Source: Elusimicrobiota bacterium
GTDB lineage: Bacteria; Elusimicrobiota; Elusimicrobia; UBA1565
Direction of reading: 5' to 3'
Length of the DNA stretch: 64,000 bases
Assembly (NCBI GenBank): GCA_041661185.1
Contig: JBAZUV010000001.1
Coordinates: 35,616 to 99,615 of the forward strand
Both the position numbers and the translations under genes were made by a program. The notes under the pieces were generated by a model. That model saw nothing but the letters and a program-made list of their open reading frames with translations. It ran no database searches and had not been told where the DNA came from. Shown here one piece after another: positions 34,928 to 50,532 of this stretch (positions are counted from its first letter, which is position 1; each line of letters opens with the position of its first letter).

Positions 34928-34947
34928 TTGTCAAATGGAGTTCATCC
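34928..34947 (+). promoter_or_regulatory. candidate Pho-box-like operator upstream of the response regulator gene
   Basis: TTGTCAaatggaGTTCATcc is two TGTCA/GTTCA half-sites at 11-bp spacing, 54 nt upstream of the ATG at 35001. Compare the E. coli Pho box CTGTCAT-N4-CTGTCAY. Confidence 0.4.
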
Positions 34948-35000
34948 GGCCGCTATTGGCGAGGCGAGGTTTTTCAGGTATCCTCAAAGAGGGGTGCCCC

Positions 35001-35675
35001 ATGGGTGGAGAAAAGATATTGGTCGTCGAGGACGAGAAGGATATCGTCCGGCTCTTGCGCTACAACCTGGAGAAGGAAGGCTACTGCGTCGCGGCCTGCC
35101 ACGACGGAGAGGCCGCTCTCGAATGCTTCCGCAAGGAACGCCCCGACTTGGTCATCCTGGACCTCATGATCCCCAAGCTCGACGGCATCGAGGTCTGCAA
35201 GCTCCTGCGGCAGTCCTCCCAGGTCCCCATCCTCATGCTCACCGCCAAGAAGAGCGAGGTGGACCGCATCCTGGGTCTCCGGATCGGAGCGGACGACTAC
35301 GTCACGAAGCCCTTCTCGGTGGGGGAACTCCTGGCTCGCGTGCAGGCCTTGCTGCGCCGCGCCGCGCATCCTGTCGTGAACGCCTTGCGCGCGGGGGCTC
35401 TGGAGATGGACTTCGAGCGCCATGAGCTGCGTCTTGAAGGAAAGCCGGTTTCGGTGACTCCCAAGGAGTTCGAGTTCCTCAGGCTCCTCGTGCAGTCGGA
35501 CGGGAAGGTCCTCACCCGCGAGGAGATCCTCGAACGCGTATGGGGATACGACCGTTCGATGGACATCGACACGCGCACCGTCGACCAGCACATCGCCCGT
35601 CTGCGCCGCAAGCTCGGAGCGGAAGGGGAGCGCATCCTCACGGTCACCAACGTGGGCTACCGTTTCCGTCCGTGA
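35001..35675 (+). CDS. OmpR/PhoB-family response regulator
   Basis: Track ORF trimmed to MGGEKILVVEDEKDIV at 35001 (AGAGGGG SD upstream). LVILDLMIPKLDG, ILMLTAK and GADDYVTKPF form the receiver. The winged-helix output has LTPKEFEFLRLL....G.V.TREEIL..VWG.......RTVD.HI.RLR.KL. Confidence 0.9.
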   Translation: MGGEKILVVEDEKDIVRLLRYNLEKEGYCVAACHDGEAALECFRKERPDLVILDLMIPKLDGIEVCKLLRQSSQVPILMLTAKKSEVDRILGLRIGADDYVTKPFSVGELLARVQALLRRAAHPVVNALRAGALEMDFERHELRLEGKPVSVTPKEFEFLRLLVQSDGKVLTREEILERVWGYDRSMDIDTRTVDQHIARLRRKLGAEGERILTVTNVGYRFRP

Positions 35676-37426
35676 GTTCCCGCTCGCGTCTTTACATCAT
35701 CATCCTCACCGTGGCCGCGCTCTCGAGCGCGCTCGCCGGATTCGCCGGCTGGCGTTCCGTCCGCACCCAGCTCGTCGGACAGCTCGCGCAGGGCCTTCTG
35801 GAGAAAGGGCGCATACTCGTGCGCGAGTTGCCCGCGGGCGGCGCGGGAACGCGAGGCATCTCTGCGTGGGTCTCCAGAACCGCCCCTTTGGCGGAGGCCC
35901 GCATCAGCCTCATCGCCGCCGACGGCCGTTTGCTCGCGGACTCGAGTCTGAGTCCGGAGGAGTTTGCGCGCGCGGAAAACCACGCGGACCGTCCGGAGTT
36001 CGTCGCGGCTCGGCGAAAAGGGAAAGGGATCTCTCTTCGGCACAGCCATTCCACGGGCATGGACTTCCTTTATGCCGCCGTGCCCGTCTCCAAAGGGGGC
36101 GATTGCGCGGTCCTGCGTCTGGCCATGCCGTTGGACCGAGTCGATGAGACGCTCTCCCGCATGCGCCGCAGCATCATCGATTACGCCTGCATCGCCCTGC
36201 TCATCGCGCTCTTCTTCGCCGCTTTCGCGGCCGCGATCATCCGTCGTCCGCTCATCCTCCTGGCCGAGGCCGCCGACCGCATGTCCGCGGGCTCCGGCGC
36301 CGTTCCTCAGCGGGGGTGCGATGAGCTCGACCGTCTGGCCGAGACGCTCCACGGACTCTCGCTGAAGTCTTCTCAGACGCTCCGAGCGCTCAAGGAGGAG
36401 AAGTCGAGGCTTCAGGCCACGCTCGCGCACATGGCCGAGGGAGTCGCCGTCGTGGACGCGCAAGGGTGTTTTCTCGAGGTGAACCCCGCGATGGAGTCGC
36501 TCTTCGGCCTGGAGTCGGCGCGCGCGCGCGGCGCGCCCCTCATCGAGATACTGCGCCACGGCGAGCTCAAGGCTCTGCTTGACCGCGCCGCAGCGGGGAA
36601 GGGGCCGGCTTCCGGAGAGCTCACGCTGTTCACTCCCGGAGAGCGCGTTTTCGAGGCGCATGCCACGCCGGTCCTTGAGAGCGGATCCCTGCACGGGATC
36701 GTCCTGGTCCTTCACGACATCACCCGGCTGCGCCGTTTGGAGGAGATGCGCCGCGACTTCGTCGCCAACGTCTCCCATGAGCTGCGCACGCCTCTGGCTT
36801 CGATCAAGGGCTTCGCCGAGACCTTGCGCCGCGGAGCGCTCGAGGATCCCGCGCACCGTCTGGAGTTCGTGGAGACCATCGAGACGCAGGCCGACCGGCT
36901 GACTCGCCTCGTCGACGACCTGCTCGAGATGGCTGCCGTCGAATCCGGTCGCCGTCCTCTGCGTTTGGAGATCATCGGGCTCTTGGACTTCGCGCGGGAG
37001 GTTGCCGCATCCCTGGCGCCTCAAGCGCGCAAGCGGCGCGTGCGCGTCGAGATAGGCATCGACGCGGGCGCTTCGGTCAGGGCCGACCGGGCTTCCCTGC
37101 GTCTGCTCCTTCAGAATCTTCTCGACAACGCCATAAAATATAACCGCGATGAAGGGACGGTGACCGTGACGGCGCGGTCCGAAGAAAAGTCCGTCGACCT
37201 TTGCGTGCGCGACACGGGCATCGGCATTCCTGCCGCGGACCTGCCCCGCGTCTTCGAGCGCTTCTACCGCGTGGACAAGGCGCGCTCCCGCGAACTCGGC
37301 GGGACCGGGCTCGGCTTGGCCATCGTCAAGCATCTGGCCGAGGCCCACGGCGGCCGAGTCTTCGTCGAGAGCGTCGAGGGGGAAGGGTCCTCCTTCCACG
37401 TCTTCCTGCCGCACGACCGGGTCTAA
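35672..37426 (+). CDS. PhoR-like sensor histidine kinase (two TM segments/periplasmic loop, PAS, HisKA, HATPase_c)
   Basis: A GTG start overlaps the regulator stop (GTGA). A PAS-like segment (LAHMAEGVAVVDAQG.FLEVNPA.E.LFG) is followed by RRDFVANVSHELRTPLASIKGFAETL, LLDNAIKYN, DTGIGIP and GGTGLGLAIVKH. This arrangement and H-box are typical of PhoR. Confidence 0.88.
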   Translation: MSSRSRLYIIILTVAALSSALAGFAGWRSVRTQLVGQLAQGLLEKGRILVRELPAGGAGTRGISAWVSRTAPLAEARISLIAADGRLLADSSLSPEEFARAENHADRPEFVAARRKGKGISLRHSHSTGMDFLYAAVPVSKGGDCAVLRLAMPLDRVDETLSRMRRSIIDYACIALLIALFFAAFAAAIIRRPLILLAEAADRMSAGSGAVPQRGCDELDRLAETLHGLSLKSSQTLRALKEEKSRLQATLAHMAEGVAVVDAQGCFLEVNPAMESLFGLESARARGAPLIEILRHGELKALLDRAAAGKGPASGELTLFTPGERVFEAHATPVLESGSLHGIVLVLHDITRLRRLEEMRRDFVANVSHELRTPLASIKGFAETLRRGALEDPAHRLEFVETIETQADRLTRLVDDLLEMAAVESGRRPLRLEIIGLLDFAREVAASLAPQARKRRVRVEIGIDAGASVRADRASLRLLLQNLLDNAIKYNRDEGTVTVTARSEEKSVDLCVRDTGIGIPAADLPRVFERFYRVDKARSRELGGTGLGLAIVKHLAEAHGGRVFVESVEGEGSSFHVFLPHDRV

Positions 37427-37450
37427 GCGTCAAAAAAAAGGCACGCCTTC
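37427..37450 (+). promoter_or_regulatory. 24-nt motif shared with the porin-pst promoter region (candidate Pho-type operator)
   Basis: GCGTCAAAAAAAAGGCACGCCTTC here versus GCGTCAAAAAATGTTCACGCGTTC at 44917-44940 (19/24 identical by eye). It lies 39-62 nt upstream of the phosphatase ATG. Confidence 0.4.
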
Positions 37451-37488
37451 GGCAAAGGATCCCAATACGGCGCTGTTACCATTCCCTT

Positions 37489-38988
37489 ATGGAAAGGAAA
37501 TGGTCCTTCGCTCATGCGGCCCTTCTGCTCATCGTGCTTGCGCCGTGCGCTCCGGCGGCGCCGCCCCCTTTGACCGTCGTCTTCGTCGTCGACCAGATGC
37601 GCGCGGATTATCTCGCGCGCTTCGGCAAGGAGTTCTCGGGAGGCTTCGCTCGGTTCGTCAAGGACGGGGCGGTCTTCGAGAACGCCCGCCAAGCGCACGT
37701 GCCGACGACGACCGCCGTCGGACACGCGGCCATCGGCACGGGACGCTTCCCGGCCCAGCACGGGATCGTGGGCAACGAGTGGTGGGACAGGACTCTGGGA
37801 CGCATGAGAGCATCCGTCGAGGACGAGGAATACGGCCGCAGCCCCCTCAATCTCCGGGACGAGACGTTCGGCGACATCCTCAAAGCCGTCCGTCCGGCTT
37901 CGAAGGTGATCAGCCTTTCCGGGAAGGATCGAGGAGCCGTTCTTTTGGGCGGCCGCCGCCCGGACCTTGTGCTCTGGTTCAACAAGAGCGCCGGACAGTT
38001 CGTGACGGACACGTATTATGGTCGGATGCCCGATTGGGTGTGGGACTGGGATGCGCGGCTCTCCATCCCCCTTGCCGAAAGGGATGGATTCATGGAAAGC
38101 CCGCGCTTCGATGCGCTGCTGCTCGAACTCGCCGGAAAGACGGTCGAGAACGAACGGCTGGGGCTGGGGAAAGGGCGCAGCGATCTTCTCTTTATCAGTC
38201 TTTCGGGCACCGATATCATCGGGCACAAGAAAGGGCCCGACAGTCCGGAGATACGTGAACAGCTTCTCGGCCTGGATAAGAGCCTGGGAGCCTTCCTCTT
38301 TTATTTGGACGGCCGTCTCGGCGAGGGGCGATATCTCGCGGTCTTGACCTCGGATCACGGGGTCACGTCCATGCCCGAGAGCGCCGATGGCCGCTCCAAG
38401 GGAATCCGACGCATCCTGCAATCCGAGTTGGAGGATGAAGTAGAGGCGGCTCTGCGCAAGAGGCTGGGCGAACCCGGTCTTCTCGACCGCTGGCTGCTGG
38501 GATTGAGGTCCCCGAACGTCTATCTCAATAAGCCCCTGGCTCTTGAGAAAGGCATGGACGATCGGCTTCTCGCCGAAGCCGCGGACATCTTGGGAAGCCT
38601 GCCCGCCGTCTTGGCGGTCATGCGGCCCGAGGACCTCTTGGCCGCTCGCGCCGAAAAGGGCCCGTATGAGGAGATCTTTCGCAGAAGCTTCTATCCCGCT
38701 CGTTCGGGGGACCTGCTGGTCCTTTTAAAGGAGAACATGCTCGTCGCGGGTCTTCCGGGAGAGACCAGCCACAGCCTTCCCTACGACCAAGATTCCCGCG
38801 TGCCGCTGGTCTTCATGGGAGAGGGGATCGTTCCCGGAAGATACCCGGCGCAGGCCTTGGGCACGGATATCGCTCCGACCGTGTCCTCCTTTTTGGAGAT
38901 CCCGTTCGAACCGGCGGCCGGAAGCCGGGTGCTCAAGGAAGTCCTGGCAGAGGACGCGCTCGGTGCGCAGTCCAAGAGGCCCTCATGA
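37489..38988 (+). CDS. alkaline phosphatase-superfamily enzyme (PafA / nucleotide pyrophosphatase-phosphodiesterase type), secreted
   Basis: Track ORF 37201..38988 trimmed to MERKWSFAHAALLLIVLAPCAPA (signal peptide). VVFVVDQMRADYL, VPTTTAVGHAAIGTG..PAQHGIVGNEWWD, ..SGTD.IGH..GP and LTSDHG match type I phosphodiesterase/NPP and PafA-like phosphatases. Confidence 0.85.
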   Translation: MERKWSFAHAALLLIVLAPCAPAAPPPLTVVFVVDQMRADYLARFGKEFSGGFARFVKDGAVFENARQAHVPTTTAVGHAAIGTGRFPAQHGIVGNEWWDRTLGRMRASVEDEEYGRSPLNLRDETFGDILKAVRPASKVISLSGKDRGAVLLGGRRPDLVLWFNKSAGQFVTDTYYGRMPDWVWDWDARLSIPLAERDGFMESPRFDALLLELAGKTVENERLGLGKGRSDLLFISLSGTDIIGHKKGPDSPEIREQLLGLDKSLGAFLFYLDGRLGEGRYLAVLTSDHGVTSMPESADGRSKGIRRILQSELEDEVEAALRKRLGEPGLLDRWLLGLRSPNVYLNKPLALEKGMDDRLLAEAADILGSLPAVLAVMRPEDLLAARAEKGPYEEIFRRSFYPARSGDLLVLLKENMLVAGLPGETSHSLPYDQDSRVPLVFMGEGIVPGRYPAQALGTDIAPTVSSFLEIPFEPAAGSRVLKEVLAEDALGAQSKRPS

Positions 38989-41828
38989 AAAGACCCATCG
39001 CCGTCGTCCTCGCCGCGTCGCTCGCGGTCCTGCAGCCCGGAGCGCTCATCCAAGAAGCCCGCGCGCAGGTCTCGGCACGGATGGCCGGAGCGAACGTCGT
39101 TCTTCCGGGACAGCTGTCGATCCCCGCCGTTTTGGCCCCGATGGAGGAAGGACAAGGAAGCCTCCCTGCTCACTCGGCCGGCATGGGCCTTTCGCTGCCT
39201 CTCATGGATGTTCAGGCGCCCGCCGCGCTCGTCCCGACGTCCTCGATCGGGGAGGCGCCGATCCTTCCTTCGTTCGAGGACGCCGCTGTCGCGAAGACGG
39301 AGCATTCGGCGGGATCATCGGTCTCGGCGAAGCCTCGCGCCGTCGTGGAAGCGAAGAGAAGTCCTTCCTCGGACCGCCCGTCCTTGATCGATACCCTGCG
39401 CGGCTTCTGGACCGAGCGCTCGAAGAAAACGGCTTTATCTCATCCGGCTGCCGCGGAGTCCTTGCCGGAAAAAGGGCGGGCTCTTTTCGATGGAGACAAG
39501 CTGAGGGCGTATCTTCTTCGCCCGGACGGCACGCATTCCTCCGTGAGCTGGGAAGGACTTCCGGCCGTTCTGGCCGCCGATCCTGATTATAGGGAGGCCC
39601 TTGCGCGCAAGGGCCGCATACGCCTTATCGTGGACAAGAACGCCGCTCCCGGCGGATTTTCCGCCGGGGATGCGCAAGCGATCGCGGACATCCTGGCCGG
39701 ATCCGGGATCTCCCGCGGCATCGAGGTCGAGAATCTGGGCAAGGCTCCGAAAGAGACGCCGATATCCTCGTCCGGCGTCGGAGAGTCTCCCGTGCGCAAG
39801 AGCGGCGGGGTCCTCTCATCCTTGCCGGTGCTCAGGGAGGTCTCCTTCCTGGCGAGGAATCTCTCCGCGTCCATGCGCAAGCTCGAGCGTTCCGAGGTCA
39901 CCGCGGGGCTGCTGTCGAGCCTTCCGGGCTTCATCAACAGCATGATCTTCTACGTCGCGCTGTTCTTGCCCCAATACCGGGCGTCATTCGCGGCCATGGT
40001 CGCCTTGACCGTGCTCATGAAGGCGATCCACAACGTGGGCGTCGGCATCTGGACGAGCTTCCAGAACCGGCTCATGCTCCAGCGAGGAAGCTCCTATCTC
40101 ACGACCTTCAATTTCGGCTACGGACAATCCACGGCCGCGCTCTATCGCGCGATCGCCTGGTCCGCCCGTCCCAGCGCCACCCTCCCTCCCTGGGATATCC
40201 GGTATTGGCGGGATATGTCCGTGATGAGCGTCCTGGGCACCGTGTTCTACACGATCGGGAACATGGCGGCCAACGAACTCTACAACAAGGGGCTGCTCTC
40301 CAGGCGGGGGGTCACCTTCCTCCAGCAGCTGCGCGCCGGGGTCGGCGACATCGACGGGATATTCTACAAGGCCGGCTTCATGGGCTTTTTCTGGATCGCC
40401 TTCGCGATCCATCAGTTCCTGGACCTCGCGCTCTATCCTCTCGCCGCCTTGCTCAAGGCCCGTCCGATACTCACCCTCGCATCCGAGGACGTCGCCTCCA
40501 CGAAGGAATTCAGCGACCTTTACCTTCCGCATGCCGACGCGGCGGGTTCTCCCATGAAGCGGCTGCGCCAAGCCTTGCTCGGCGCTCCGTTCATCGCGCA
40601 GTTCGTCTCGATCGCGCGGTTCCTAAAAAGGCGCTTGGGGAGGCTCTTCGCTCCTGCCGCCTTGTCCGCGGCCGTTGCGTTTTCTCCGCAGATCTTGGCG
40701 TCCGCCTATGAGCAAGGGGCCGCCGGCACCGCCTCCCAACCCATCGAAAGAGTCCTCTCGCGCCTGCCGCGCCTGACCCCCGTGCTCGACGCCTCCGGAA
40801 AGGCGAAGATCATCGCCGACAGCGTGGCCCAGCCGGTGCTGACGGACTACCCCGACGGAGGGCTGGGGGTCTTCAAGCCCATCCGCATGCCCAAGACCGA
40901 TCCGAAATACAAATATGAGTGCATGAAGGCGCTCTGCGAAGTGGTCTCTTCCCATATCGCCGCGAAGATGGGGGTCCCCACCGTACGCTACCGCCTGGCG
41001 CACGCCGATATCGACGCAGAGGAGCATATCGGCGTGGTGACGCCGTATCTGCCGTCCCTTAAGACGCTCGTCGAGGCTCCGGAACTCGCCGATCACATCG
41101 TCAACGCCGAGGAGTTCACTCGCGGGGCGGTCATCGACGCGTGGCTGGGGAACACCGACCGCATCATCAGCCGCAAGAACGTATGGGTCATCGAGGACAA
41201 GGGCGAGGCGAGGGTCCTCTTCGGCGACTATGATCAGACGTTCAGGCCGCACGCCGCGCTCTTCGGCATCCCGAAGACTCAACTGCAGCTTCTGCCCCGC
41301 TACGCGAAGCCCGAGACGCTGCGCCGCATCCTGGCCGATATCGCCAAGCTCGACGATAAGACGATCCGGGCGTGGGTCGGGGAAGCCTTGTCCCTGAGCG
41401 GGGGGATCGGCGACGGTTGGGGGGAGTATTTCTCCGAGGTCCTCATCGACAACCGCGACGAGCTCGGCGGAACCCGCGCTTTCGACGAGCTCCTTTCCGG
41501 CCGGAAGCCCCGCATGAGCCTGAGCGCCCCCGCGGCTGCCTCGCTGGCCGACAAGGTCCTCGCGGGGCAAAAAGACCCCTCGCGCATCGGCGCGCAAGTC
41601 GATGCGGCGATCAAGAGGATGGAGATCTATTTCAGCACCAACGGCGACCTGCGGGCGCCCATGAGAACGCTTCTTGAGGAACTTGCCCGACGCCGCTTGG
41701 CCCAAGAGGACGGCCCCTACGAGTTCGCCGAAGGCGACTTGACGCTCCTGGCTCCGCTCATCCACTTCGTCTGGTCGTCCTTCGAGCCCGCCGAAGCCAT
41801 CGGCGGCGGCCTCGAATACCATCGGTGA
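38985..41828 (+). CDS. large signal-peptide polytopic membrane protein with C-terminal atypical kinase domain (type II PI4-kinase-like motifs)
   Basis: 947 aa. Start overlaps the phosphatase stop (ATGA). Signal peptide MKRPIAVVLAASLAVLQPGALIQEARAQ, about 280 aa with no recognised domain, then several hydrophobic helices at about aa 300-580. The C-terminus has GLGVFKP, VIDAWLGNTDRIISRKNVWVI and LFGDYDQTF. These resemble PI4K2A AVFKPK, LDYIIRNTDRGNDNWLI and AIDNGLAF. Confidence 0.8.
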   Translation: MKRPIAVVLAASLAVLQPGALIQEARAQVSARMAGANVVLPGQLSIPAVLAPMEEGQGSLPAHSAGMGLSLPLMDVQAPAALVPTSSIGEAPILPSFEDAAVAKTEHSAGSSVSAKPRAVVEAKRSPSSDRPSLIDTLRGFWTERSKKTALSHPAAAESLPEKGRALFDGDKLRAYLLRPDGTHSSVSWEGLPAVLAADPDYREALARKGRIRLIVDKNAAPGGFSAGDAQAIADILAGSGISRGIEVENLGKAPKETPISSSGVGESPVRKSGGVLSSLPVLREVSFLARNLSASMRKLERSEVTAGLLSSLPGFINSMIFYVALFLPQYRASFAAMVALTVLMKAIHNVGVGIWTSFQNRLMLQRGSSYLTTFNFGYGQSTAALYRAIAWSARPSATLPPWDIRYWRDMSVMSVLGTVFYTIGNMAANELYNKGLLSRRGVTFLQQLRAGVGDIDGIFYKAGFMGFFWIAFAIHQFLDLALYPLAALLKARPILTLASEDVASTKEFSDLYLPHADAAGSPMKRLRQALLGAPFIAQFVSIARFLKRRLGRLFAPAALSAAVAFSPQILASAYEQGAAGTASQPIERVLSRLPRLTPVLDASGKAKIIADSVAQPVLTDYPDGGLGVFKPIRMPKTDPKYKYECMKALCEVVSSHIAAKMGVPTVRYRLAHADIDAEEHIGVVTPYLPSLKTLVEAPELADHIVNAEEFTRGAVIDAWLGNTDRIISRKNVWVIEDKGEARVLFGDYDQTFRPHAALFGIPKTQLQLLPRYAKPETLRRILADIAKLDDKTIRAWVGEALSLSGGIGDGWGEYFSEVLIDNRDELGGTRAFDELLSGRKPRMSLSAPAAASLADKVLAGQKDPSRIGAQVDAAIKRMEIYFSTNGDLRAPMRTLLEELARRRLAQEDGPYEFAEGDLTLLAPLIHFVWSSFEPAEAIGGGLEYHR

Positions 41829-43519
41829 GAGAGGACTCCGTTTTGAATAGGCCTTCATCGACAGCCGAGGTCTTGGGGCCGGTTTTGGAGACGCTCGATG
41901 AGTTCGGCCGAGACGTCGGCTGGGGCCATATGCCGCCGGAACCGCTCGAAGCGCCCGTCTCCATCGACGAACTCCAGATCGACTTCACCCCTTCCCCCGC
42001 GGATTGGAGGGACCAGATCCTCTATTCCGTCATCATCGACCGGTTCAGCCGCGCCCGTCCGTTCAAGAGATGGGGCGATCCCGCCGACGGACGCACGCGC
42101 CACGGCGGGAACATCCGAGGACTCATCGAGCGGCTGGACTATCTGAAGGGCTTGGGCGTCACCACGCTGCAGATCAATCCGATCTTCATGAATCCGCCGG
42201 CCGGCTACCACCAATATTGGCCCGTGCATTTCCTGGCGGTCGACCCGCATCTGGGCACGATGAGGGACTTCAAAAAACTCGTGCTCGAGGTTCATCGGCG
42301 GGGCATGTACATCGTCATGGACATGGTCTTCAACCATACGGCGCCGATCATCCAGTACGACGGGGACGTCCGGTTCGGCCCGCGCAAGAGCGTCAAGCGC
42401 TGGCGCTATCTGCTCAAGCCCGTGGAACTCGCCGATGAGCGGCATTACAGCCTGCGCGGAGACATCAACGATTGGCATGACGCGCGGCAGTGCGCCGAGG
42501 GAGACCTCCCCGGAGGCATCAACCGCCTGCGCACGGAGGACCGCTCCACCCAGGACATCCTCCTCAAGATCGCCAAGTGGTGGATACGGGAGACGGACGT
42601 CGACGGATTCCGCCTGGATGCCTATCCCCATGTGTCCAAAGACCTCTGGACCCGCGTCTTCAGCGAGATCCGGGACTATGCCGCGAAGCTCGGCAAGCGG
42701 GACTTCCTTCTCATGGGGGAGCTTTTCGACGGGGATCCGCGGCATTACGTCGGAGAGCTCCGAAACGGCCGGCTCAGCGCCGCCTACAACTACCCCGCGT
42801 ATTTCTGGAACAACGCGGCCCTGCACGCGCAGGCCGCTCCCGAGGCGCTTGCCCAAAGCCATGAGGCCTTGTCTTCGCTGCTGGGGGACCGGCTCCACTA
42901 CATGGTGAATTTCATCAGCAACCATGACCGGGTCCATTTCCTCAAGGAGAACGACGACGCCGGCCTGCTCCGGTTCGCGCTGGGCTGCATCCTCACGGAC
43001 ATCGGGATCCCGTATCTATATGGAGAAGAGCAGGCGCCTCGGCAGGTTCCCGGAAGGGAGCTCTTGGATGTGGAGGCTCCCCGCGAGGACCGCTTCATCC
43101 AGGGACGCTTCAAGAATCCTTGCTCTCCCTTGGACGGGTTTTCCACGGGCTCTCCCGAATACCGGTTGATGAACGCGCTGATCCGGGTCCGCAAGGACGT
43201 CGCCGCTTTGCGCCGAGGCGAGAAGCATGTCCGCTGCGCCGAGTCTCGGGGTCCGGGTCTCTACGTTTTCAGCCGGATCCACGAAGGCCGGGAAGCGCTC
43301 GTGGTCCTCAACAGCGCGAACGAGCCTCGCGGCGCGCGGGTCTGGGTGGATTCCAGCCTCACCCCTGCCGGCACGCGGCTCATCGACGCGCTCGACGCGG
43401 AATATTCCTCGACCGCGTTCTCCGAGGATGGGAAGGGCTCCCAAGTCGAGGTCCAAGCGCCCGCCTACGGCGTGCGCATCCTGCTGGAAGAACGTCCGGG
43501 AGAGCGCCATGAAGGATAG
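41825..43519 (+). CDS. GH13 alpha-amylase-family glycoside hydrolase (no signal peptide)
   Basis: A GTG start overlaps the upstream stop. It has the four GH13 regions: DMVFNHT, GFRLDAYPHV (nucleophile Asp), a GELF-type region (LLMGELFD) and FISNHDRV. Confidence 0.9.
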   Translation: MREDSVLNRPSSTAEVLGPVLETLDEFGRDVGWGHMPPEPLEAPVSIDELQIDFTPSPADWRDQILYSVIIDRFSRARPFKRWGDPADGRTRHGGNIRGLIERLDYLKGLGVTTLQINPIFMNPPAGYHQYWPVHFLAVDPHLGTMRDFKKLVLEVHRRGMYIVMDMVFNHTAPIIQYDGDVRFGPRKSVKRWRYLLKPVELADERHYSLRGDINDWHDARQCAEGDLPGGINRLRTEDRSTQDILLKIAKWWIRETDVDGFRLDAYPHVSKDLWTRVFSEIRDYAAKLGKRDFLLMGELFDGDPRHYVGELRNGRLSAAYNYPAYFWNNAALHAQAAPEALAQSHEALSSLLGDRLHYMVNFISNHDRVHFLKENDDAGLLRFALGCILTDIGIPYLYGEEQAPRQVPGRELLDVEAPREDRFIQGRFKNPCSPLDGFSTGSPEYRLMNALIRVRKDVAALRRGEKHVRCAESRGPGLYVFSRIHEGREALVVLNSANEPRGARVWVDSSLTPAGTRLIDALDAEYSSTAFSEDGKGSQVEVQAPAYGVRILLEERPGERHEG

Positions 43520-44204
43520 TCCGCTCATCGAGTTCGATCCTGGGGTCCTGCGGGGACTGCGGTCCTGCAGGGTCCGGCCGAGCCGGAGCGATCGCGCGTA
43601 TCTGGCGACCAAGACCTTCGGCGTCAATCTCGCCGTGCGCGGTGCTTTCGCGCTTTCCGGCATCCACGGCGGAGCTTCGGCTGCGAGGGTCGTCTGCGCG
43701 TTGTCCTGGCATCAGCTCCAGGACGCGGCCTGCACGCTCTACGGCCGGTCCTACTTGAACCTGCTCGCACGCGCAGCCGGAGGATTGAGGATCGCCGGAC
43801 GCGGCATCGGGGACCTCGTCTTCGTCTACGTCCAAGTCAGCGCTTCCGAGGTCCTGACCCGCCTCATCCTGGGTCCCGTCGGCAATACTCCCTCGGCGCT
43901 GACCCTTGCCGGCCTCGGGATGGTCTTCCTGAACGTCGGGCAGGGCATGATCGCCGGAGGCTCCATCATCCCGGCGATCAATCAGGTGCGCAAAGCCGGC
44001 TTCATCGGAGAGCGAGCGTGCATGCACATCTACCAGCTCTCCGGCCTGACAATCCACCTCGGACTCCTGGCGACTTTCGGATACCAAGCCCTCCATGCCT
44101 GGGCCACCGCGGCGCTCTCCATCGCCTCCTGGTCCTTCTATGCCGTTGCCGTGGCGATCGATAGGGGGACGGATCTGCCCAAGGGAAGCCGCCTCCAGGT
44201 TTGA
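43509..44204 (+). CDS. hypothetical membrane protein
   Basis: Track ORF 43227..44204 trimmed to MKDSPLIEFD at 43509 (11-nt overlap with the GH13 gene). It has several hydrophobic segments (..LTLAGLGMVFLNVGQGMIAGGSIIPAI.., ..LSGLTIHLGLLATFGY.., ..AALSIASWSFYAVAVAI..). No recognisable family. Confidence 0.6.
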   Translation: MKDSPLIEFDPGVLRGLRSCRVRPSRSDRAYLATKTFGVNLAVRGAFALSGIHGGASAARVVCALSWHQLQDAACTLYGRSYLNLLARAAGGLRIAGRGIGDLVFVYVQVSASEVLTRLILGPVGNTPSALTLAGLGMVFLNVGQGMIAGGSIIPAINQVRKAGFIGERACMHIYQLSGLTIHLGLLATFGYQALHAWATAALSIASWSFYAVAVAIDRGTDLPKGSRLQV

Positions 44205-44874: not shown

Positions 44875-44940
44875 TTGACGTTCAGGTGACGGCGGGAGAA
44901 CGACGGCATGACCCCCGCGTCAAAAAATGTTCACGCGTTC
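44875..44940 (+). promoter_or_regulatory. six consecutive 11-bp units carrying TGAC/TCAC-type hexamers (candidate Pho-box array) in the divergent promoter region
   Basis: TTGACGttcag GTGACGgcggg AGAACGacggc ATGACCcccgc GTCAAAaaatg TTCACGcgttc, with strict 11-bp phasing. It lies between the divergent secreted-protein gene (start 44830) and the porin-pst operon (start 45049). Confidence 0.45.
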
Positions 44941-45048: not shown

Positions 45049-46188
45049 ATGAAGAACGCCGCGGTCTGGGCCTTGCTGGTCTTCGGGCCGATCCTTCCGA
45101 CGCAGGCGCAGGAATTGAAGCTCTCGAGCCATCTTGAGAGCGTGAAGTTCAGCGGAGATTTCCGCCTTCGCCAGGAGAACTTCAAGAAGATGACGCCCAA
45201 CAAGTACGACCGGAACCGGGAGCGGTTCCGTCTGCGCCTGGGCGTCGAGGTCCAGTTTCCCAACCAGGTCCTGAGCGTGTTCCGCTTCGCTTCGGGCACC
45301 GGCGAGCAGGTCTCCACCAACCAGACCTTCACGGGCATCGGCAGCCAGAAAGGCATCTACATCGATCAGGCCTATCTCGCCTGGCGGCCTTCCTTAGGAG
45401 AGAACGGCAGCGCCTATCTTCAATCGGGCCGCATGCAGAACGCTCTTTGGCAGACGTATTCCTCGGATGCGCTATGGGACGCGGACTTGAACCCGGAAGG
45501 GGTCGGGGAAGGGATTGAATATCTGTTCCCGGACACCGGGGTGAGCCTCTTCGCCAACGCGCAGCAGATGGCCGCGGCGGAGTCGGCCAACAACACGGCG
45601 CGCCCGTTCTGCTTGAGCCAGCAGCTCGGGTTCGAGACGCGGCTGCCGGTCAAATCGCGACTGCGCATGGCCGCGGCCTACCACCACTGGACGAACGTCG
45701 ATGCCTTCGCCTTCGGCCAGGGCGTCACCCAGGACGGGAACCGGCGCTATTCGACGAACGTCCCGAAGAACCTCTTCGGAGTGGGGGAAGTCACGGCGGA
45801 GCTGCGCTCCTGGGTCGGCCGCCTGCCCCTCTCCGTGCAGGGCACCTATCTCAACAACCTGCGCGCCAGGGACAATCTTGGGTCCGCGGAGAACTACGGC
45901 TACCAGACCGGCTTCATCCTGGGGAAAGCCTCCGGCGCGAAGACCTGGGAGGCCGCGTACTTCTACAAGTTCCTGCGCACCGATGCGACGATCGCCGATG
46001 CCGTCGATTCAGACTTCGGCAACGGCGGGACCAACCGCAAGGGCCATATCCTGTGGCTGGCCTACAGCCCAAAGGATTGGCTGCAGGTGAAGGCCAAGTA
46101 TTTCATCACCCGTCTGCTGGCGGACAACCAAGGCCAGACCGACGACGCGATCAACCGCGCACAACTGGACTTCCAGGTGAAGTTCTGA
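45049..46188 (+). CDS. outer-membrane porin (beta-barrel), first gene of the pst cluster
   Basis: Signal peptide MKNAAVWALLVFGPILPTQAQ, alternating amphipathic beta-strand pattern and a C-terminal ..LDFQVKF with terminal Phe. An AGGAGA SD lies upstream. Its position suggests a phosphate/anion porin. Confidence 0.8.
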   Translation: MKNAAVWALLVFGPILPTQAQELKLSSHLESVKFSGDFRLRQENFKKMTPNKYDRNRERFRLRLGVEVQFPNQVLSVFRFASGTGEQVSTNQTFTGIGSQKGIYIDQAYLAWRPSLGENGSAYLQSGRMQNALWQTYSSDALWDADLNPEGVGEGIEYLFPDTGVSLFANAQQMAAAESANNTARPFCLSQQLGFETRLPVKSRLRMAAAYHHWTNVDAFAFGQGVTQDGNRRYSTNVPKNLFGVGEVTAELRSWVGRLPLSVQGTYLNNLRARDNLGSAENYGYQTGFILGKASGAKTWEAAYFYKFLRTDATIADAVDSDFGNGGTNRKGHILWLAYSPKDWLQVKAKYFITRLLADNQGQTDDAINRAQLDFQVKF

Positions 46189-46211
46189 GAAAACATAGGA
46201 GAATGAAAACC

Positions 46212-47231
46212 ATGAACATCCTTAAGAATATCCGGAGATCGGCCGCTCTCCTCGTCCTGCTGGCCGCAGCCGCATCCGCCGCGCAAACGACGAACCTCAA
46301 TGGGGCCGGGGCCACCTTTCCCTACCCCATCTACTCCAAGTGGTTCGACGACTACCGGCAAGCGCGTCCGGACGTGCAGATCAACTACCAGTCCATCGGT
46401 TCCGGGGGCGGCATCCGGCAGATCACGGCCCGCACAGTGGACTTCGGCGCCACCGACGGTCCGATGACGGACAAGCAGCTCTTCGCCGTCGACGGGAAGA
46501 TCCTCCATCTGCCCACCGTGCTGGGCGCGGTGGTCCCGGTGTTCAACGTCAAGGGGCTCTCCGAACTCAACCTGAGCGGAGAGGTCCTCGCCGACATCTT
46601 CCTCGGCAAGGTCCGCATGTGGAACGACAAGGCTCTCGCCGACCTCAACCCCGGCGTCGAGCTTCCCTCCGCGCCCATCACGGTGGTCCATCGTTCCGAC
46701 GGGTCCGGCACGACCTACTGCTTCGTCGACTATCTGAGCAAGGTCAGTCCCGGATGGCTCAAGGGCGTCGGGCGGGGGACCTCCGTGAACTGGCCGGTCG
46801 GCCTGGGCGGCAAGGGCAACGAGGGCGTGTCGAGCATGGTCAAGGGCATGCCCGGGGCCATCGGCTACGTCGAACTCATCTACGCCAAGCAGAACGGCAT
46901 CGCGTATGCGTCCGTGCGCAACAAGGCGGGCCGGTTCGTGTCGGCGGATATCGAGGCGGTCACCGCCGCGGCGGCCGCTTCCTCCCGGACGATGCCCGCG
47001 GACTTCCGCGTCTCCATCACCGACGCGCCGGGCGAGAAGGCCTATCCCATCTCGACCTACACCTGGCTGCTCGTCTATCAGAAGAACACGGCTCCTCGCG
47101 GGGAGATCCTCAAGGGCTTCCTGCGCTGGATGCTCAAGGACGGACAGAAGAGCGCCGCGTCCTTGGGCTATGCGCCCCTGCCCGCCGAGGTCGCCGTGAA
47201 GGTCGCCGCGGCGGCGGAGACTCTGCGGTGA
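46212..47231 (+). CDS. pstS: phosphate ABC transporter substrate-binding protein
   Basis: Signal peptide, then GAGATFPYPIYSKW, NYQSIGSGGG and RSDGSGTT. The start is placed at the ATG 9 nt after the AGGAGA SD. An alternative ATG lies at 46203. Confidence 0.95.
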   Translation: MNILKNIRRSAALLVLLAAAASAAQTTNLNGAGATFPYPIYSKWFDDYRQARPDVQINYQSIGSGGGIRQITARTVDFGATDGPMTDKQLFAVDGKILHLPTVLGAVVPVFNVKGLSELNLSGEVLADIFLGKVRMWNDKALADLNPGVELPSAPITVVHRSDGSGTTYCFVDYLSKVSPGWLKGVGRGTSVNWPVGLGGKGNEGVSSMVKGMPGAIGYVELIYAKQNGIAYASVRNKAGRFVSADIEAVTAAAAASSRTMPADFRVSITDAPGEKAYPISTYTWLLVYQKNTAPRGEILKGFLRWMLKDGQKSAASLGYAPLPAEVAVKVAAAAETLR

Positions 47232-48199
47232 TCCCCGTCATCGCGCGCAGCATCGCGCGAAGCGGCGTCAAGAAAGTCGCCGGCCCGCGCGAGCGGGCCG
47301 GCGACCGGGTCTTTCAAGCCGCGCTCTGCGCGGCGGCCATGAGCGTCGTCGCGCTCGCGCTCGCGCTCGCCTGCCGGCTTTCCATCGATTCCCGCCTGCT
47401 CTGGAAGGCGATGGGGCCCGGCTTCCTCTGGGGCACGACCTGGGACCCCGTCGCCGAAGTCTTCGGCGCGCTGCCGTTCATCTTCGGCACGCTCGTCACT
47501 TCCGCGCTGGCGCTCCTCATCGCGGTCCCTTTGGGCATCGGCGCGGCCGTGTTCCTTTCCGAGATGGCGCCGCGCCGGGTCGCCGCGGTCTGCGGCTTCC
47601 TCATCGAGCTCCTCGCCGCGGTCCCCAGCGTCATCATCGGACTCATGGGCATCTTCGTGCTGGTGCCGGTCGTCCGATCCGTCGAACCGTTCCTCATCTC
47701 CACGCTGGGCCGGCTGCCTTTATTCTCCGGCTTCCCTTACGGAGTGGGCATGCTGAGCGCCGGACTCGTGCTCGCGATGATGGTGCTGCCCTACATCACC
47801 ACCATCACCCGCGAGGTGCTCATGACCGTCCCGAGCTCTCTTAAGGAAGGCGCTTTGGCCTTGGGCGCCACGCGCTGGGAGACCGTGCATACGGTCAGCC
47901 TTCCTTATGCGCGCTCGGCCGTCGTGGGGGCGGTGTTCCTCGCTCTGGGCCGCGCGCTGGGAGAGACCATGGCCGTGACCATGGTCATCGGCAATACGCC
48001 GAAGATCTCGGCTTCCCTGCTCGATCCCGGCTACAGCATGGCCGCGGTCATCGCCAACGAGTTCGCCGAGGCGACCTCCGACGCCTATGTCCATGCGCTC
48101 ATCGGCATCGGCCTGGTCCTCTTCGTACTGACGCTCCTCATCAACGGCTGCGCCCGCTGGATGATCCTCCGGCTCGCGCGCCCGGCGGGCGCGCGATGA
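47228..48199 (+). CDS. pstC: phosphate ABC transporter permease PstC
   Basis: A GTG start overlaps the pstS stop (GTGA). It has six TM segments and the EAA-type loop ..LKEGALALGATRWET... Confidence 0.95.
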   Translation: MIPVIARSIARSGVKKVAGPRERAGDRVFQAALCAAAMSVVALALALACRLSIDSRLLWKAMGPGFLWGTTWDPVAEVFGALPFIFGTLVTSALALLIAVPLGIGAAVFLSEMAPRRVAAVCGFLIELLAAVPSVIIGLMGIFVLVPVVRSVEPFLISTLGRLPLFSGFPYGVGMLSAGLVLAMMVLPYITTITREVLMTVPSSLKEGALALGATRWETVHTVSLPYARSAVVGAVFLALGRALGETMAVTMVIGNTPKISASLLDPGYSMAAVIANEFAEATSDAYVHALIGIGLVLFVLTLLINGCARWMILRLARPAGAR

Positions 48200-49047
48200 G
48201 ATTCCCCGACTACGCGCGGCGCAAGCAGGTCGACCGGTTCGCCACGGCGCTCTCGGCCGCCTGCGCGTTCTTCGCCCTCGCGGCGCTCTTTGCGATCCTC
48301 GGCTACATCGCGTCCAAGGGCGCGGCGGCCGTGAACTGGGATTTCCTCACCCAGCTCCCGAAGCCGGTCGGAGAGATCGGCGGAGGAATCGCCAATTCCA
48401 TCGTCGGGACCGCGAAGATCGTCGGCCTGGCCGCGCTGCTCGGAGGTCCCATCGGCATCCTGGGGGGCATCTATCTCAGCGAGTACGCATCTTCCCGCAC
48501 GGCTTTCTGGGTCCGGTATGCCGCGGACGCGCTCAACGGAGTTCCCTCCATCGTCATGGGGATATTCGCCTACTCCATCATCGTGCTGCCGCTCAAGCGC
48601 TTCAGCGGCCTGGCCGGGAGCATCGCTCTGGGAGTGATCCTCATCCCCATCGTGCTGCGCAATACCGAGGAGTTCATGCGCCTGGTCCCGCGCAGCGTCC
48701 GGGAGGGCGCGCTCGCCCTGGGCATCCCGCGCTGGAAGTGCGTTCTGCGCGTGGCTCTGCCCACCGCCGCGCCCGGCGTGCTCACCGGCCTGCTGCTGGG
48801 CATATCGCGCATCGCGGGGGAGACGGCGCCGCTCATCTTCACGGCTTTCGGGAACCGCTTCTGGGATCAAGGGATGCTGCACCCTATGGCGTCCCTGCCT
48901 CTGACGATCTATACCTACGCCATCTCGCCCTATGAGGATTGGCACCGCCAGGCTTGGGCGGGCGCCTTCATCCTGCTGATGTTCGTTCTGACGGCCAATA
49001 TCCTGGCCCGGCTCCTGATGAGGCGCCCCACCGGAGGACACTCATGA
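48196..49047 (+). CDS. pstA: phosphate ABC transporter permease PstA
   Basis: ATGA overlap with pstC. ..[14 protein letters not shown].....LP.A.PG..TG..L...R..GETAPL is typical of PstA. Confidence 0.95.
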
Positions 49048-49859
49048 TCCCGACGATCGAATCCGCCGTGCCGACCGAGAAGTCCGAGAAAGTCTCCGAG
49101 GAGGAGCGCCGCGTCATCCTCTCGGCGCGGGCCCTTCGGGCGGGCTACGGCGCGGCCGAGATCCTCAAAGGGGTGGACTTCCCCGTGCGTGAAAGGGTCG
49201 TCACGGCCGTCATCGGCCCCTCGGGCTGCGGGAAGTCCACGCTCATCCGCTGCCTCAACCGCCTTCACGAGAGCGTGCCGGGCGGCTGGTGCGAGGGGGA
49301 ACTCCTGCTCGACGGAGAGGATCTCCTGCGGATCGATCCCGTGCTCCTGCGCAGGCGCATCGGCATGGTCTTCCAGCGTCCTAATCCGTTTCCGAGCATG
49401 TCCATCCGCCAGAACGTGGCTGCCGGGCTCACGCTCAACGGCGTGCGCGCGCGCAGGGTCGTCGACGAGCGCGTCGAGCGCGCGCTCAGCGACGCGGCGC
49501 TCTTCTCGGAGGTCAAGGACCGTCTCGACGAGTCCGCCCTCGGACTCTCCGGCGGCCAGCAGCAGCGTCTGTGCATCGCCAGGGCGCTGGCCGTGGAGCC
49601 GGAGGTCCTGCTGCTCGACGAGCCCTGTTCGGCGCTCGATCCCATCGCCACGGCGCGCATCGAGGAGCTGCTCTTCGAGCTCAAGAAGCGCCTGACCATC
49701 GTGACGGTCACCCACAACATGCAGCAGGCCGCCCGCGTGTCGGACTACACGGCGTTCCTTCTGATGGGGGAACTCGTGGAGTGCGGCCCGACCCGGCAGG
49801 TCTTCACGCGCCCGGCGGACAAGCGGACCGAGGACTATATCACCGGCCGATTCGGCTGA
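49044..49859 (+). CDS. pstB: phosphate ABC transporter ATP-binding protein
   Basis: Track ORF trimmed to MIPTIES at 49044 (ATGA overlap). It has Walker [20 protein letters not shown], the signature [14 protein letters not shown], Walker B LLLDEP and the C-terminal [10 protein letters not shown] characteristic of PstB. Confidence 0.97.
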
Positions 49860-49869
49860 GGAAGGATCC

Positions 49870-50532
49870 ATGACCATGAAAAGGCATTTCGACGACGATC
49901 TCCAGGCGATGCGCTCCCGCCTGCTCGAGATGGGCGCGGCCTGCGAGGAGATGGTGCAGTACGCGCTCAAGCTCTTGGCGGAACGTTCCTCTCAATACAT
50001 GGACGAGGTGCGTCGAAGAGAGGATATCGTCAATCGATTGCACGTCGAGGTCGACGAGCAGTGCCTCCAGCTCATCGCGCGCTATCAGCCCGCCGCCGGC
50101 GACCTGCGCATGATCGCGGCCGCGCTCAAGATCAACTCGGACCTCGAGCGCATCGGCGACCAGGCGGTCAACATCGCCGAGAACGGGATGTTCTTCATCG
50201 CGCAGCCGCACATGATGCTCTTCCATGTCCCGCGCATGGCGGAGCTCGCCTGTTCGATGCTCAAGGACAGTCTCGACGCCTTCTCCCGCAAGGACGTGGA
50301 GAAGGCCCGCGCCGTGCTCCGCAAGGATGACGAGGAAGACGAGCTCAAGGGCCGCGTCTTCAAGGAGCTCATGGCGCTCATGCAGTCGGATCCTTCCACG
50401 ATACAGCGGGGGCTCGACATCATCCTCATCGCCCGAAACCTCGAACGCATCGCCGACCACGCCACCAACATCGCCGAGGACGTCATCTTCATGGTCGCGG
50501 GAAGGGATGTGCGGCACGGTGCGGGGCGTTGA
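49870..50532 (+). CDS. phoU: phosphate signaling complex protein PhoU
   Basis: 220 aa with two PhoU repeats, each having the ..DLERIGDQA.NIAE / ..NLERIADHATNIAED motif. Confidence 0.95.
   Translation: MTMKRHFDDDLQAMRSRLLEMGAACEEMVQYALKLLAERSSQYMDEVRRREDIVNRLHVEVDEQCLQLIARYQPAAGDLRMIAAALKINSDLERIGDQAVNIAENGMFFIAQPHMMLFHVPRMAELACSMLKDSLDAFSRKDVEKARAVLRKDDEEDELKGRVFKELMALMQSDPSTIQRGLDIILIARNLERIADHATNIAEDVIFMVAGRDVRHGAGR

Follow-up and report, generated by a model that had tools for sequence, protein, structure and literature searches.

A kinase-fold protein with a predicted membrane module, encoded beside a GH13 enzyme in a phosphate gene cluster of an Elusimicrobiota bacterium

The type II phosphatidylinositol 4-kinase PI4KII-alpha is a membrane-surface enzyme, attached to the membrane via the cysteine-rich palmitoylation motif CCPCC. 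Among the kinase-fold enzymes that work outside the cytosol, Fam20C is a protein kinase and Fam20B is a xylose kinase. The TreS-Mak and GlgE systems couple a small-molecule kinase of the kinase fold genetically, and often by fusion, to an alpha-glucan enzyme of glycoside hydrolase family 13 (GH13). Here, we describe gene X, which lies in a 64,000-nucleotide stretch of DNA of an Elusimicrobiota bacterium (contig JBAZUV010000001.1, positions 35,616 to 99,615; hereafter, the window) and encodes a protein of 947 amino acids (aa) that joins an N-terminal module, predicted to be embedded in the membrane, to a C-terminal kinase-fold domain. The gene stands between those for a PafA-like phosphatase and an alpha-amylase-family enzyme, GH13-A. 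Its phoBR-pst setting and the GH13-tied family of its non-kinase half are the two most informative facts that go beyond the initial annotation of the window, which had been made from the sequence alone.

PI4KII-alpha (4hne/4hnd/4pla) is the best structure match of X, and the two proteins keep the same order of the lysine, the catalytic Asp...Asn and the metal-binding Asp. However, the catalytic loop of X reads DRIISRKN, with the asparagine at +7, X has no match to the PI3_PI4_kinase model PF00454, and the template-modelling (TM) scores reach only 0.42-0.45. The tether is a helical membrane module in X, whereas it is palmitoylation in PI4KII-alpha, and no CC motif was found in aa 581-947 of X, which, moreover, is bacterial and has a phosphate-cluster context. 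HipA, the HipA_2 family (PF20613) and CtkA of H. pylori belong to the same PI3/4K-like branch, and CtkA (3akk) and HipA (3dnt, 3tpt) match X in structure, but X has no toxin-antitoxin partner, is fused to an exported membrane module, and matches HipA_2 below threshold. CotH (5jda) is the second-best match in the Protein Data Bank (PDB), and its kinase fold is found outside the cell near glycoside hydrolases, as is likely for X; in the cellulosomes of bacteria and fungi, CotH homologues are extracellular non-CAZyme parts whose function is undefined (PMC12774918). X differs from CotH in lacking a dockerin, in its N-terminal architecture, and in the phosphate-cluster context, which is specific to X. 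The Fam20 proteins, which are structural matches at E 1e-4 to 1e-3, have no sequence-level relation to X, are eukaryotic, work in the Golgi lumen with imported ATP, and have a different domain context. As for TreS-Mak, Mak belongs to the APH-like branch, the components are all cytosolic and there is no membrane module; GH13-A matches the specific GH13 subfamily models weakly (TreS, 72 bits versus a cut-off of 678), with no GlgE match among the listed matches.

Gene X and its kinase-fold domain

38985..41828, + strand: gene X, 947 aa, ATG to TGA, with known homologues
40725..41825, + strand: protein-kinase-like domain, aa 581-947 (367 aa), defined by the AlphaFold2 (AF2) model, Foldseek and a weak HipA_2 match
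40875..40877, + strand: codon of K631 (VFK motif), the predicted ATP-phosphate lysine, conserved in 67/67 and aligned to the beta3 lysine of NEK1
41157..41180, + strand: catalytic-loop segment D725-R-I-I-S-R-K-N732, after W720-x-G722-N, from conservation
41226..41228, + strand: codon of D748 (FGDYDQ), the DFG-Asp equivalent, conserved in 65/65 and aligned to the DFG of NEK1 and BMPR2

The reading frame of X was found exactly as annotated initially, from its ATG on the + strand through all 947 codons. The ATG and the stop codon of the PafA-like gene before it overlap (ATGA), with a Shine-Dalgarno-like AGAGG element 5' of the start, and the stop codon of X is overlapped by GTG 41825, the first possible start of the downstream GH13 gene, so that there are 4-nt overlaps at both ends. 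The G+C content (0.63-0.64) is the same as that of the surroundings. Relatives with 37-53% identity come from independent metagenomes and metagenome-assembled genomes (MAGs), indicating that X is a real gene; two of them, from independent metagenomes, are 51% and 38% identical over 82% of its length, and two further ones (37%) were found in Elusimicrobiota MAGs that are GTDB representative genomes. These conserved homologues rule out a chance ORF (open reading frame) in GC-rich DNA. We modelled X with AF2 at full length (mean predicted local distance difference test score, pLDDT, 82; predicted TM-score, pTM, 0.53) and as aa 581-947 alone. The four-part layout first proposed (signal peptide, region without a recognised domain, hydrophobic helices, soluble C-terminal domain) holds, with refinements to the extent of the helices and to the N-terminal region.

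The C-terminal part is indeed a confidently modelled domain (pLDDT 94.1, pTM 0.91), and a Foldseek search of the PDB with this model gave 40 matches at E<=0.001, all of those listed being kinase-fold proteins. The top match was human PI4KII-alpha (4hne_B; E 6.1e-6, probability 1.00, TM 0.42/0.45, 16% identity over 311 columns), followed by CotH (5jda; E 4e-5, TMq 0.43), by Fam20A and CtkA (1.4e-4), and then by PknI, Fam20C, PI4KII-beta and HipA (1.3e-3). In the viral library BFVD, phage proteins named 'PI3/4-kinase catalytic domain' ranked first. We regard this structure search, which had been suggested with the annotation, as decisive for the kinase fold, with hardly any doubt left. The full-length model also returned only kinases and no match for the helical bundle. 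The long alignments to PI3K/mTOR in that search were discarded as a helical-plus-kinase likeness, having a TM of ~0.15 and a root-mean-square deviation (rmsd) of > 24 Å.

Sequence profiles place the domain less sharply. Searches of Pfam and NCBIfam with the whole of X and with its three parts gave only the sub-threshold match to HipA_2 (15.5-15.7 bits, E 0.009-0.01, gathering cut-off 27), and PF00454 matched neither full-length X at E<=0.01 nor aa 601-947 at E<=10. Among 36 relatives of the domain, HipA_2 is the sole recurring Pfam family (4/36 at E <= 0.1, best E 5.9e-7), with PF00454 and CotH (PF08757) each matching one of the 36, at E 0.059 and 0.079, respectively. A search of the PDB with the single domain sequence gave no match. 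A profile of the kinase family gave only marginal ones (NEK1, BMPR2), at the catalytic loop, but in these VFK aligns to the beta3 lysine of NEK1, and N...(D)YG/DFG covers the asparagine of the catalytic loop and the DFG in both NEK1 and BMPR2.

The three motifs noticed in the initial annotation are all present and are conserved beyond chance. In counts taken over 69 proteins carrying the kinase-like domain, K631 is kept in 67/67, D725 in 66/67 and D748 in 65/65, next to W720 (65/67) and G722 (67/67), and position 732 is Asn (48) or Ser (17) in 65/67. Hence, a kinase-fold match was found and the Lys/Asp/Asp positions are conserved, the two points on which the kinase proposal had been made to depend. 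The catalytic loop of X, DRIISRKN, differs from the shorter PI4KII loop with which it had been aligned at first. The label 'type II PI4-kinase-like' holds insofar as PI4KII-alpha is the best solved structure; it fails as a family assignment, since X has no PF00454 membership and only modest TM-scores, and since the matches within this branch extend to protein and sugar kinases as well as lipid kinases. The domain is a new, sub-threshold branch of the protein-kinase-like superfamily, within its PI3/4-kinase-HipA-CotH branch. As the order Lys-Asp-Asn-Asp of active protein-kinase-like members is kept in the family, an ATP-dependent phosphotransferase is the most likely identity, and the domain is probably catalytically competent, judging by these residues.

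To delimit the family, we drew on ~15 billion proteins, in libraries that comprise 1.84 billion cluster representatives and a non-redundant set of 5.8 billion sequences. Scanned exhaustively with HMMER, the cluster representatives gave 134 relatives, namely 9 full-length fusions (12 with P0003, P0153 and P0155 added), ~70 proteins of 450-620 aa with only the part that we call module 1 (leader, spacer, alpha/beta domain, bundle and tail), and ~35 proteins of 280-450 aa with only the kinase-like domain. The full fusion is therefore rare, with about a dozen full-length sequences, two of which could be assigned to genomes, both Elusimicrobiota MAGs. No curated Pfam or NCBIfam model covers the family, and the source names of all relatives are 'hypothetical protein', bearing out the initial impression that no described bacterial family has this fusion. 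A literature search on the X family, HipA_2/PF20613 and Elusimicrobia phosphate-starvation kinases found nothing pertinent. Module 1 is a second undescribed family. Also new are the fusion as such, the GH13 enzyme as its partner, and its constant placement in phosphate clusters. The distant stand-alone kinase-like relatives that we examined have unrelated gene contexts, some of them mobile-element-like. Two stand-alone relatives carry additional kinase-type parts: P0098 is fused to an APH-type kinase domain, and P0110 to a phosphoribulokinase/uridine-kinase P-loop domain.

Phosphate cluster and the GH13 partner

34935..37426, + strand: phoB-like response regulator (likely start 35002) and phoR-like histidine kinase (ORF 35540-37426, start uncertain)
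37201..38988, + strand: PafA/PhoY-like phosphatase (PF01663), whose stop overlaps the start of X
41843..43519, + strand: GH13-A, alpha-amylase-family enzyme without a signal peptide, with all four GH13 catalytic regions; orthologues beside or fused to the helical module
45049..50532, + strand: porin, pstS, pstC, pstA, pstB and phoU, the rest of the phosphate cluster
34930..34944, + strand: Pho-box-like direct repeat GTCAAATGGAGTTCA upstream of phoB, a post hoc pattern and a lead only
44919..44933, + strand: second Pho-box-like copy GTCAAAAAATGTTCA, upstream of the porin-pstS operon

The gene order in the window is phoB-phoR-pafA-like-X-GH13-A-two ORFs-porin-pstS-pstC-pstA-pstB-phoU, and housekeeping genes flank the cluster. 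The true start of the PafA-like gene is later than the mechanical ORF start, with an internal hydrophobic leader at ORF aa 102-120; PafA is described as a widespread phosphatase (PMC8812569). Within the window, the motif GTCAAA-N4-GTTCA, with 11-bp half-site spacing, is confined to the regions 5' of phoB and of porin-pstS, the two sites from which the pattern was derived. It has no exact match in the related loci, with a 2-mismatch version upstream of X in L001, and we take it as a lead, not as evidence.

The neighbourhoods of other kinase-fused genes of the family were as follows:

L001-3: X-GH13-A-PafA-like-phoB-phoR
L004: X-PAP2
L005: X-PafA-like-PAP2
L006: PPK-acyltransferase-X, with phoB/phoR 3.4 kb downstream
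L010: PafA-like (divergent), Metallophos, CYTH, MGDG-synthase-type glycosyltransferase, PPK
L011: pstSCAB ... X-GH13-A ... PhoA
L028: OlsB/OlsA-like, PafA-like, glycosyltransferase, X, GH13
L029: X-PafA-like

Phosphate-related genes (PafA-like, PhoBR, Pst, PhoA, PPK, PAP2, OlsB/PlcP/MGDG-synthase-type) were found in the available flanks of 9/9 kinase-fused loci, in which the gene order varies and the gene company is constant. When kinase-less module loci were searched with the window proteins, PafA-like, PhoR, PstS, PPK and PAP2 genes were found in 0/9. Phosphorus-sparing lipid genes were also observed, namely OlsB/OlsA-like acyltransferases with a glycosyltransferase at 83-4454 of L028, and Metallophos (PlcP-like) with an MGDG-synthase-type glycosyltransferase at 13995-15982 of L010.

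This company bears on the possibility that X is a PI4KII-like kinase of lipid or glycolipid head groups, acting on the membrane that holds module 1 as part of lipid remodelling during phosphate starvation. The best PDB match is a membrane-surface lipid kinase, a short linker tethers the domain to a membrane module with a conserved polar cavity, and lipid genes lie nearby (PAP2 in L004 and L005, OlsB/OlsA-like and glycosyltransferase genes in L028, Metallophos and MGDG-synthase-type glycosyltransferase genes in L010, and an acyltransferase gene in L006). However, the TM-score with PI4KII-alpha is only 0.42-0.45, and protein and sugar kinases match the domain nearly as well; X has no PF00454 match, the domain lacks a palmitoylation-type CC motif, phosphorylation of lipids opposes the phosphorus-sparing logic of the neighbouring genes, and the link to GH13 would be left unexplained. 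We therefore consider a lipid kinase quite improbable.

That link is carried by module 1. Among the loci from metagenomes that encode only this module, 6/9 have a GH13-A orthologue (39-47% identity), adjoining the module gene in most of the six and ~4 kb off in L020, and a seventh has a different amylase-domain gene adjacent. GH13-A is fused directly to the C-terminus of the module in P0032, L014 and L016, two module-only proteins carry an alpha-amylase catalytic domain, and in P0019 an amylase-like domain is placed between the leader and the alpha/beta domain. The module-only loci also hold permeases of the MalFG type, a GH77+GDE protein that has a signal peptide, and a second GH13 enzyme, whose C-terminal module is of the glucodextranase type. 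In the kinase-fused group, GH13-A lies directly downstream of X in the window, L001, L011 and L028. In the window, its likely start is TTG 41843, after AGAGAGG, while the mechanical ORF starts at GTG 41825; from the TTG, the protein begins MNRPSS..., matching MNPSS... of the L001 orthologue. Programmed frameshifting or readthrough that would join X to GH13-A was rejected, the relative frames being different (-1 in the window, in frame after one stop in L001, +1 in L011), and ordinary tight operon spacing is the simpler reading of the arrangement.

The leaderless GH13-A proteins of the window (41843-42010), L001 (12323-) and L011 (10540-) share a conserved N-terminal ...FGRD(V/I/L)GW..MP.EP..AP, which is absent from the exported or fused orthologues and, by its sequence, could be a docking peptide. 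The leaderless GH13 of L028 has a different N-terminal extension of ~190 aa.

The neighbourhoods also weigh on the reading of X as a receptor-type, HipA-like Ser/Thr protein kinase, in which module 1 would sense an envelope or glucan signal, and the kinase domain would tune growth or metabolism in phosphate limitation. In keeping with this are HipA_2 as the nearest sequence family, the protein kinases CtkA, HipA, PknI and CotH among the structural matches, a sensor-membrane-kinase layout like that of receptor kinases, and the probable co-transcription with phoBR. However, at 15.5-15.7 bits against 27 the HipA_2 match is below threshold, there is no HipB- or HipS-type partner, the neighbours of X being PafA-like and GH13 genes, and elsewhere module 1 carries a glycoside hydrolase in the place of the kinase, which fits an enzyme platform better than a sensor. 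Moreover, the targets would need to be periplasmic if the domain lies outside. A HipA-like receptor kinase is thus improbable.

Other observations concern the rest of the window. Between GH13-A and the porin gene lie two ORFs, 43521-44204 (+) and 44279-44869 (-), neither of which has a Pfam or NCBIfam match; the former has moderately hydrophobic C-terminal segments, and the latter a signal-peptide-like leader. At 24088-25765, a ~1.5-kb stretch (24.3-25.9 kb) has no ORF of at least 120 aa and a G+C content of 0.48-0.53, versus ~0.64 elsewhere. It is bracketed by inverted ~135-nt copies (24088-24222 and 25625-25765) that are 87-94% complementary, one of which folds as a branched hairpin of very high stability (-89.6 kcal/mol, z = -9.1) without an Rfam match, and the cumulative GC skew of the window peaks there. 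This element could represent mobile-element ends, a structured-RNA pair or a replication-related site. The sole RNA gene found in the window by ARAGORN and Rfam was a tRNA-Gln (anticodon TTG) at 55126-55197.

The N-terminal module and the side faced by the kinase domain

38985..39065, + strand: signal peptide, aa 1-27, with the site A-R-A before Q; sequence, Kyte-Doolittle hydropathy (KD) 1.99, family-wide trait
39066..39488, + strand: disordered Ala/Pro-rich spacer, aa 28-168; pLDDT < 50, poorly conserved or absent in relatives
39489..39752, + strand: small alpha/beta domain, aa 169-256, with four strands and three helices; pLDDT 91-97, conserved across the helical-module family
39825..40454, + strand: amphipathic helix h0 (aa 281-295) and six-helix bundle (aa 302-489), from AF2, conservation and covariation; putatively membrane-embedded
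40455..40643, + strand: post-bundle segment, aa 491-553, with strand 495-500 (consensus RPILYVAD) and a basic amphipathic tail, from AF2 and relatives
40644..40724, + strand: poorly conserved linker, aa 554-580, hydrophobic in X and shortened in P0003
39918-39920, 40335-40337, 40020-40022 and 40347-40349: codons of the charge-pair residues 312, 451, 346 and 455, respectively

The leader of X (MKRPIAVVLAASLAVLQPGALIQEARA, followed by Q) resembles a signal peptide, as noted initially, with a basic n-region, a hydrophobic core and an AxA site, and the trait recurs in the helical-module family. An N-terminal hydrophobic segment (12-residue KD > 1.8) was found in 37/55 of the M-starting proteins in the set P0004-P0064, most members of which carry the helical module; the proteins without such a segment are mostly fragment-like or have mis-called starts. 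In the leaders of X, P0011, P0019 and P0032, as well as in that of the separately encoded GH13-A of L013 (3495-3590), the motif LLxxQQG(F/V)xxxE...AxA is conserved. Since this conservation exceeds the need of a generic signal peptide, the motif may serve as a sorting signal specific to the lineage. We rejected the idea of a prepilin-type (class III) signal, as the hydrophobic stretch precedes the Gly instead of following it, and the AxA site comes after. The L001 protein P0002 (771 aa) is apparently called too short: its frame is open upstream (L001 9608-10000) and encodes MTEGLRGPLALVLAVSLAILPNEALAGA... and an Ala/Pro-rich stretch, the same leader-plus-spacer as in X.

The ~280 residues in which no domain had been recognised proved to be of two kinds, a spacer that is disordered (pLDDT < 50 at 33-132 and 140-159) and, at aa ~170-255, a confidently modelled alpha/beta domain. 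Likewise, the block of hydrophobic helices placed at aa 300-580 does contain six helices of a putatively polytopic bundle, but these end at ~490 and are only marginally hydrophobic. In the AF2 model, the helices are a (302-327), b (332-351), c (353-394), d (405-434), f (440-463) and e (466-489), and the loops a-b, b-c, c-d, d-f and f-e have 4, 1, 10, 5 and 2 residues. The interior of the bundle holds the conserved polar residues H349, W356, Q360, N376, Y379, Q381, R388, N430, R450, Q477 and D480. The region of aa 553 is where the module ends in kinase-less relatives. We rejected residues 554-573 of the linker as a seventh transmembrane helix, which would have taken the kinase domain inside, as this segment is absent in P0003, contains charged residues in P0002, and has an AF2 pLDDT < 50.

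The conservation pattern of the bundle is inside-out relative to that of soluble proteins. In the alpha/beta-domain and kinase helices, used as controls, conserved positions have a KD of +1.0 to +1.4, and variable ones of -1.1 to -1.7, with 35-40% charged residues. In the bundle this is inverted (conserved, KD -0.35; variable, KD +0.8, 11% charged), and helices a, b, c (369-395) and f combine a variable hydrophobic face with an invariant polar one. Additionally, helix f shows covariation clearly above expectation with positions in the middle of helices a, b, c and d, in an analysis that is noisy at an effective number of sequences (Neff) of ~69; covariation also ties h0 to the protruding start of helix c. 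The strongest covarying pair, K312-D451 (helices a-f), is present in 57/60 kinase-less members and in 0/10 kinase-fused ones, where K346-D455 (helices b-f) replaces it in 8/10. This intramembrane charge pair has apparently moved, and therefore the helical module seems to have diverged along with the acquisition of the kinase.

Together, the conservation pattern and the covariation make it highly probable that the bundle is embedded in the membrane, in support of the membrane tether proposed at first. All six helices would then be passes, arranged as three hairpins (a-b, c-d and f-e) with short uncharged turns. The hydrophobicity of the helices weighs against embedding. The best 19-residue windows of the helices of X have simple Hessa-scale sums of +3.6 to +5.1 kcal/mol (family medians +4.4 to +6.4), so that by this scale no segment of X is hydrophobic enough for Sec-mediated integration; in the same comparison, 5/6 PstC helices and both PhoR helices encoded in the window lie between -4.3 and +1.4, the remaining PstC helix is at +4.4, and the soluble GH13 has no segment below +6. 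The even number of helices was read from DSSP strings and connectivity, not from coordinates. A search of PDB sequences with a profile of the helical module gave only low-complexity noise. With helices too polar for ordinary insertion and a conservation like that of lipid-exposed proteins, we consider the module a candidate for insertion into the membrane after translocation.

Six passes with loops of 1-10 residues would bring the C-terminus back to the side of the alpha/beta domain, and the signal peptide would place that side outside. On the strength of the model, the kinase domain thus quite probably lies on the same side as the N-terminal domain (N-domain), and this side is, with somewhat less assurance, periplasmic. 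In L021, the same trio is encoded by separate genes, a PafA-like gene followed by P0030 and GH13-A. P0030, the closest stand-alone kinase-like protein (37% identical), has its own signal-peptide-like leader, the GH13-A of L021 has a signal peptide and an Ala/Pro linker, and the GH13-A proteins of L013 and L018 also have signal peptides of their own.

A number of observations speak against a periplasmic kinase domain. Lys/Arg residues are much more abundant on the side of the N-domain, to which h0, c1, the d-f loop and the tail also belong, than on the opposite side of the bundle, where the three loops are nearly uncharged, so that the positive-inside rule, which would make the Lys/Arg-rich side cytoplasmic, conflicts with the signal peptide. 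We know of no ATP supply in the periplasm, and the ATP-site residues are all kept in the family. GH13-A has no signal peptide in 4/4 kinase-fused loci in which it follows X, and in three of the four (the window, L001 and L011) it carries the FGRD(V/I)GW peptide, which would fit a cytoplasmic partner docking onto X. Among the stand-alone relatives of the kinase domain, most lack a signal peptide. Pairs that link the N-domain to the post-bundle segment make up 9 of the 150 strongest covarying pairs, not clearly more than the roughly 6 expected by our estimate of their share of possible pairs. A chain that was first fully translocated, and whose three hairpins then inserted from the periplasmic face, would reconcile the marginal hydrophobicity of the helices with a near side that is charged and far-side loops that are not. 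The leaderless GH13-A beside X is unexplained by a periplasmic location.

The main alternative places the kinase in the cytoplasm, with an odd number of passes, either because b-c is one kinked helix or because the polar half of f is outside the bilayer. An alpha-glucoside, bound or imported from outside by module 1, would receive a phosphate from ATP through the kinase on the inner side, in a trapping or maltokinase manner, and the leaderless GH13-A, docked via its N-terminal peptide, would process the product. The missing GH13-A leaders (4/4, with FGRD(V/I)GW in three), the intact ATP site and the leaderless stand-alone relatives are all in its favour, as are the strongly basic tail after the last helix, the b-c break, which is a single residue and could be a kink and not a turn, and the kinase-GH13 precedent of TreS-Mak/GlgE. 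However, the covariation of helix f with helices a, b, c and d involves positions in mid-membrane, so that f resembles a full pass, the conserved strand 495-500 would be partnerless on that side in kinase-less proteins, P0030 and the GH13-A of L013, L018 and L021 have signal peptides, an odd count would turn the most Lys/Arg-rich loop (d-f) outward, and sugar catabolism leaves the phosphate-cluster context unexplained. A cytoplasmic kinase is, in our view, unlikely.

The probable location away from ATP also raises the question of whether phosphate is transferred from ATP to a substrate at all. The domain could instead be a pseudokinase or scaffold, hydrolyse nucleotides for phosphate scavenging, AMPylate, or use a non-ATP donor. 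SelO, SidJ and Fam20A are kinase folds with other chemistries. The extracellular CotH homologues of cellulosomes, which are found among glycoside hydrolases with no defined function, would be a further parallel (PMC12774918). Against this stands the conservation of K, D, N and D as in active kinases, by which such alternatives become very improbable. Pseudokinases usually lose at least one of these residues.

Proposed role of X and its significance

The best overall explanation, which we put forward tentatively, is that X is a Pho-induced, two-module, membrane-tethered kinase-fold enzyme. It would be made under phosphate limitation, from two modules that also exist as separate proteins, and would be co-transcribed with phoB, phoR, the PafA-like phosphatase gene and GH13-A. 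Module 1 (aa 1-553) would anchor the kinase domain to that surface of the membrane where the alpha/beta domain also lies, and thus probably in the periplasm. Module 2 (aa 581-947), most likely an ATP-dependent phosphotransferase, would modify a carbohydrate-bearing, membrane-proximal substrate that is also handled by GH13-A and the phosphatase. A substrate of the carbohydrate type is possible, if still doubtful; it is favoured because GH13-A is the module's only constant partner across the family, and because a hydrolase fills the exact position of the kinase in other members. A phosphorylated product is counter-intuitive during phosphate starvation, which counts against the proposal.

A more far-reaching version, which we consider improbable, would be an extracytoplasmic phosphotransfer trio, consisting of the kinase-fold domain, the exported PafA-like phosphatase and the GH13 enzyme, on a hairpin bundle that enters the membrane from the periplasm. 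If true, it could parallel the reversible phosphorylation of glucan by which plants open up starch, or, alternatively, serve phosphate capture from external nucleotides or phosphoglucans, with a donor other than cytosolic ATP. X would be of less note as a membrane-anchored sugar or protein kinase of the usual cytoplasmic kind, and of more if the extracytoplasmic phosphotransfer were true.

X adds to the kinases a rare family without a curated model, fused to a second undescribed family. If its kinase domain is extracytoplasmic, it poses the question of phosphate donors in the bacterial envelope, and it may illuminate the unexplained extracellular CotH-type proteins found among polysaccharide-degrading enzymes. 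Together with GH13-A, X would extend the phosphate-starvation response by kinase-fold and amylase-type enzymes in a poorly studied phylum.

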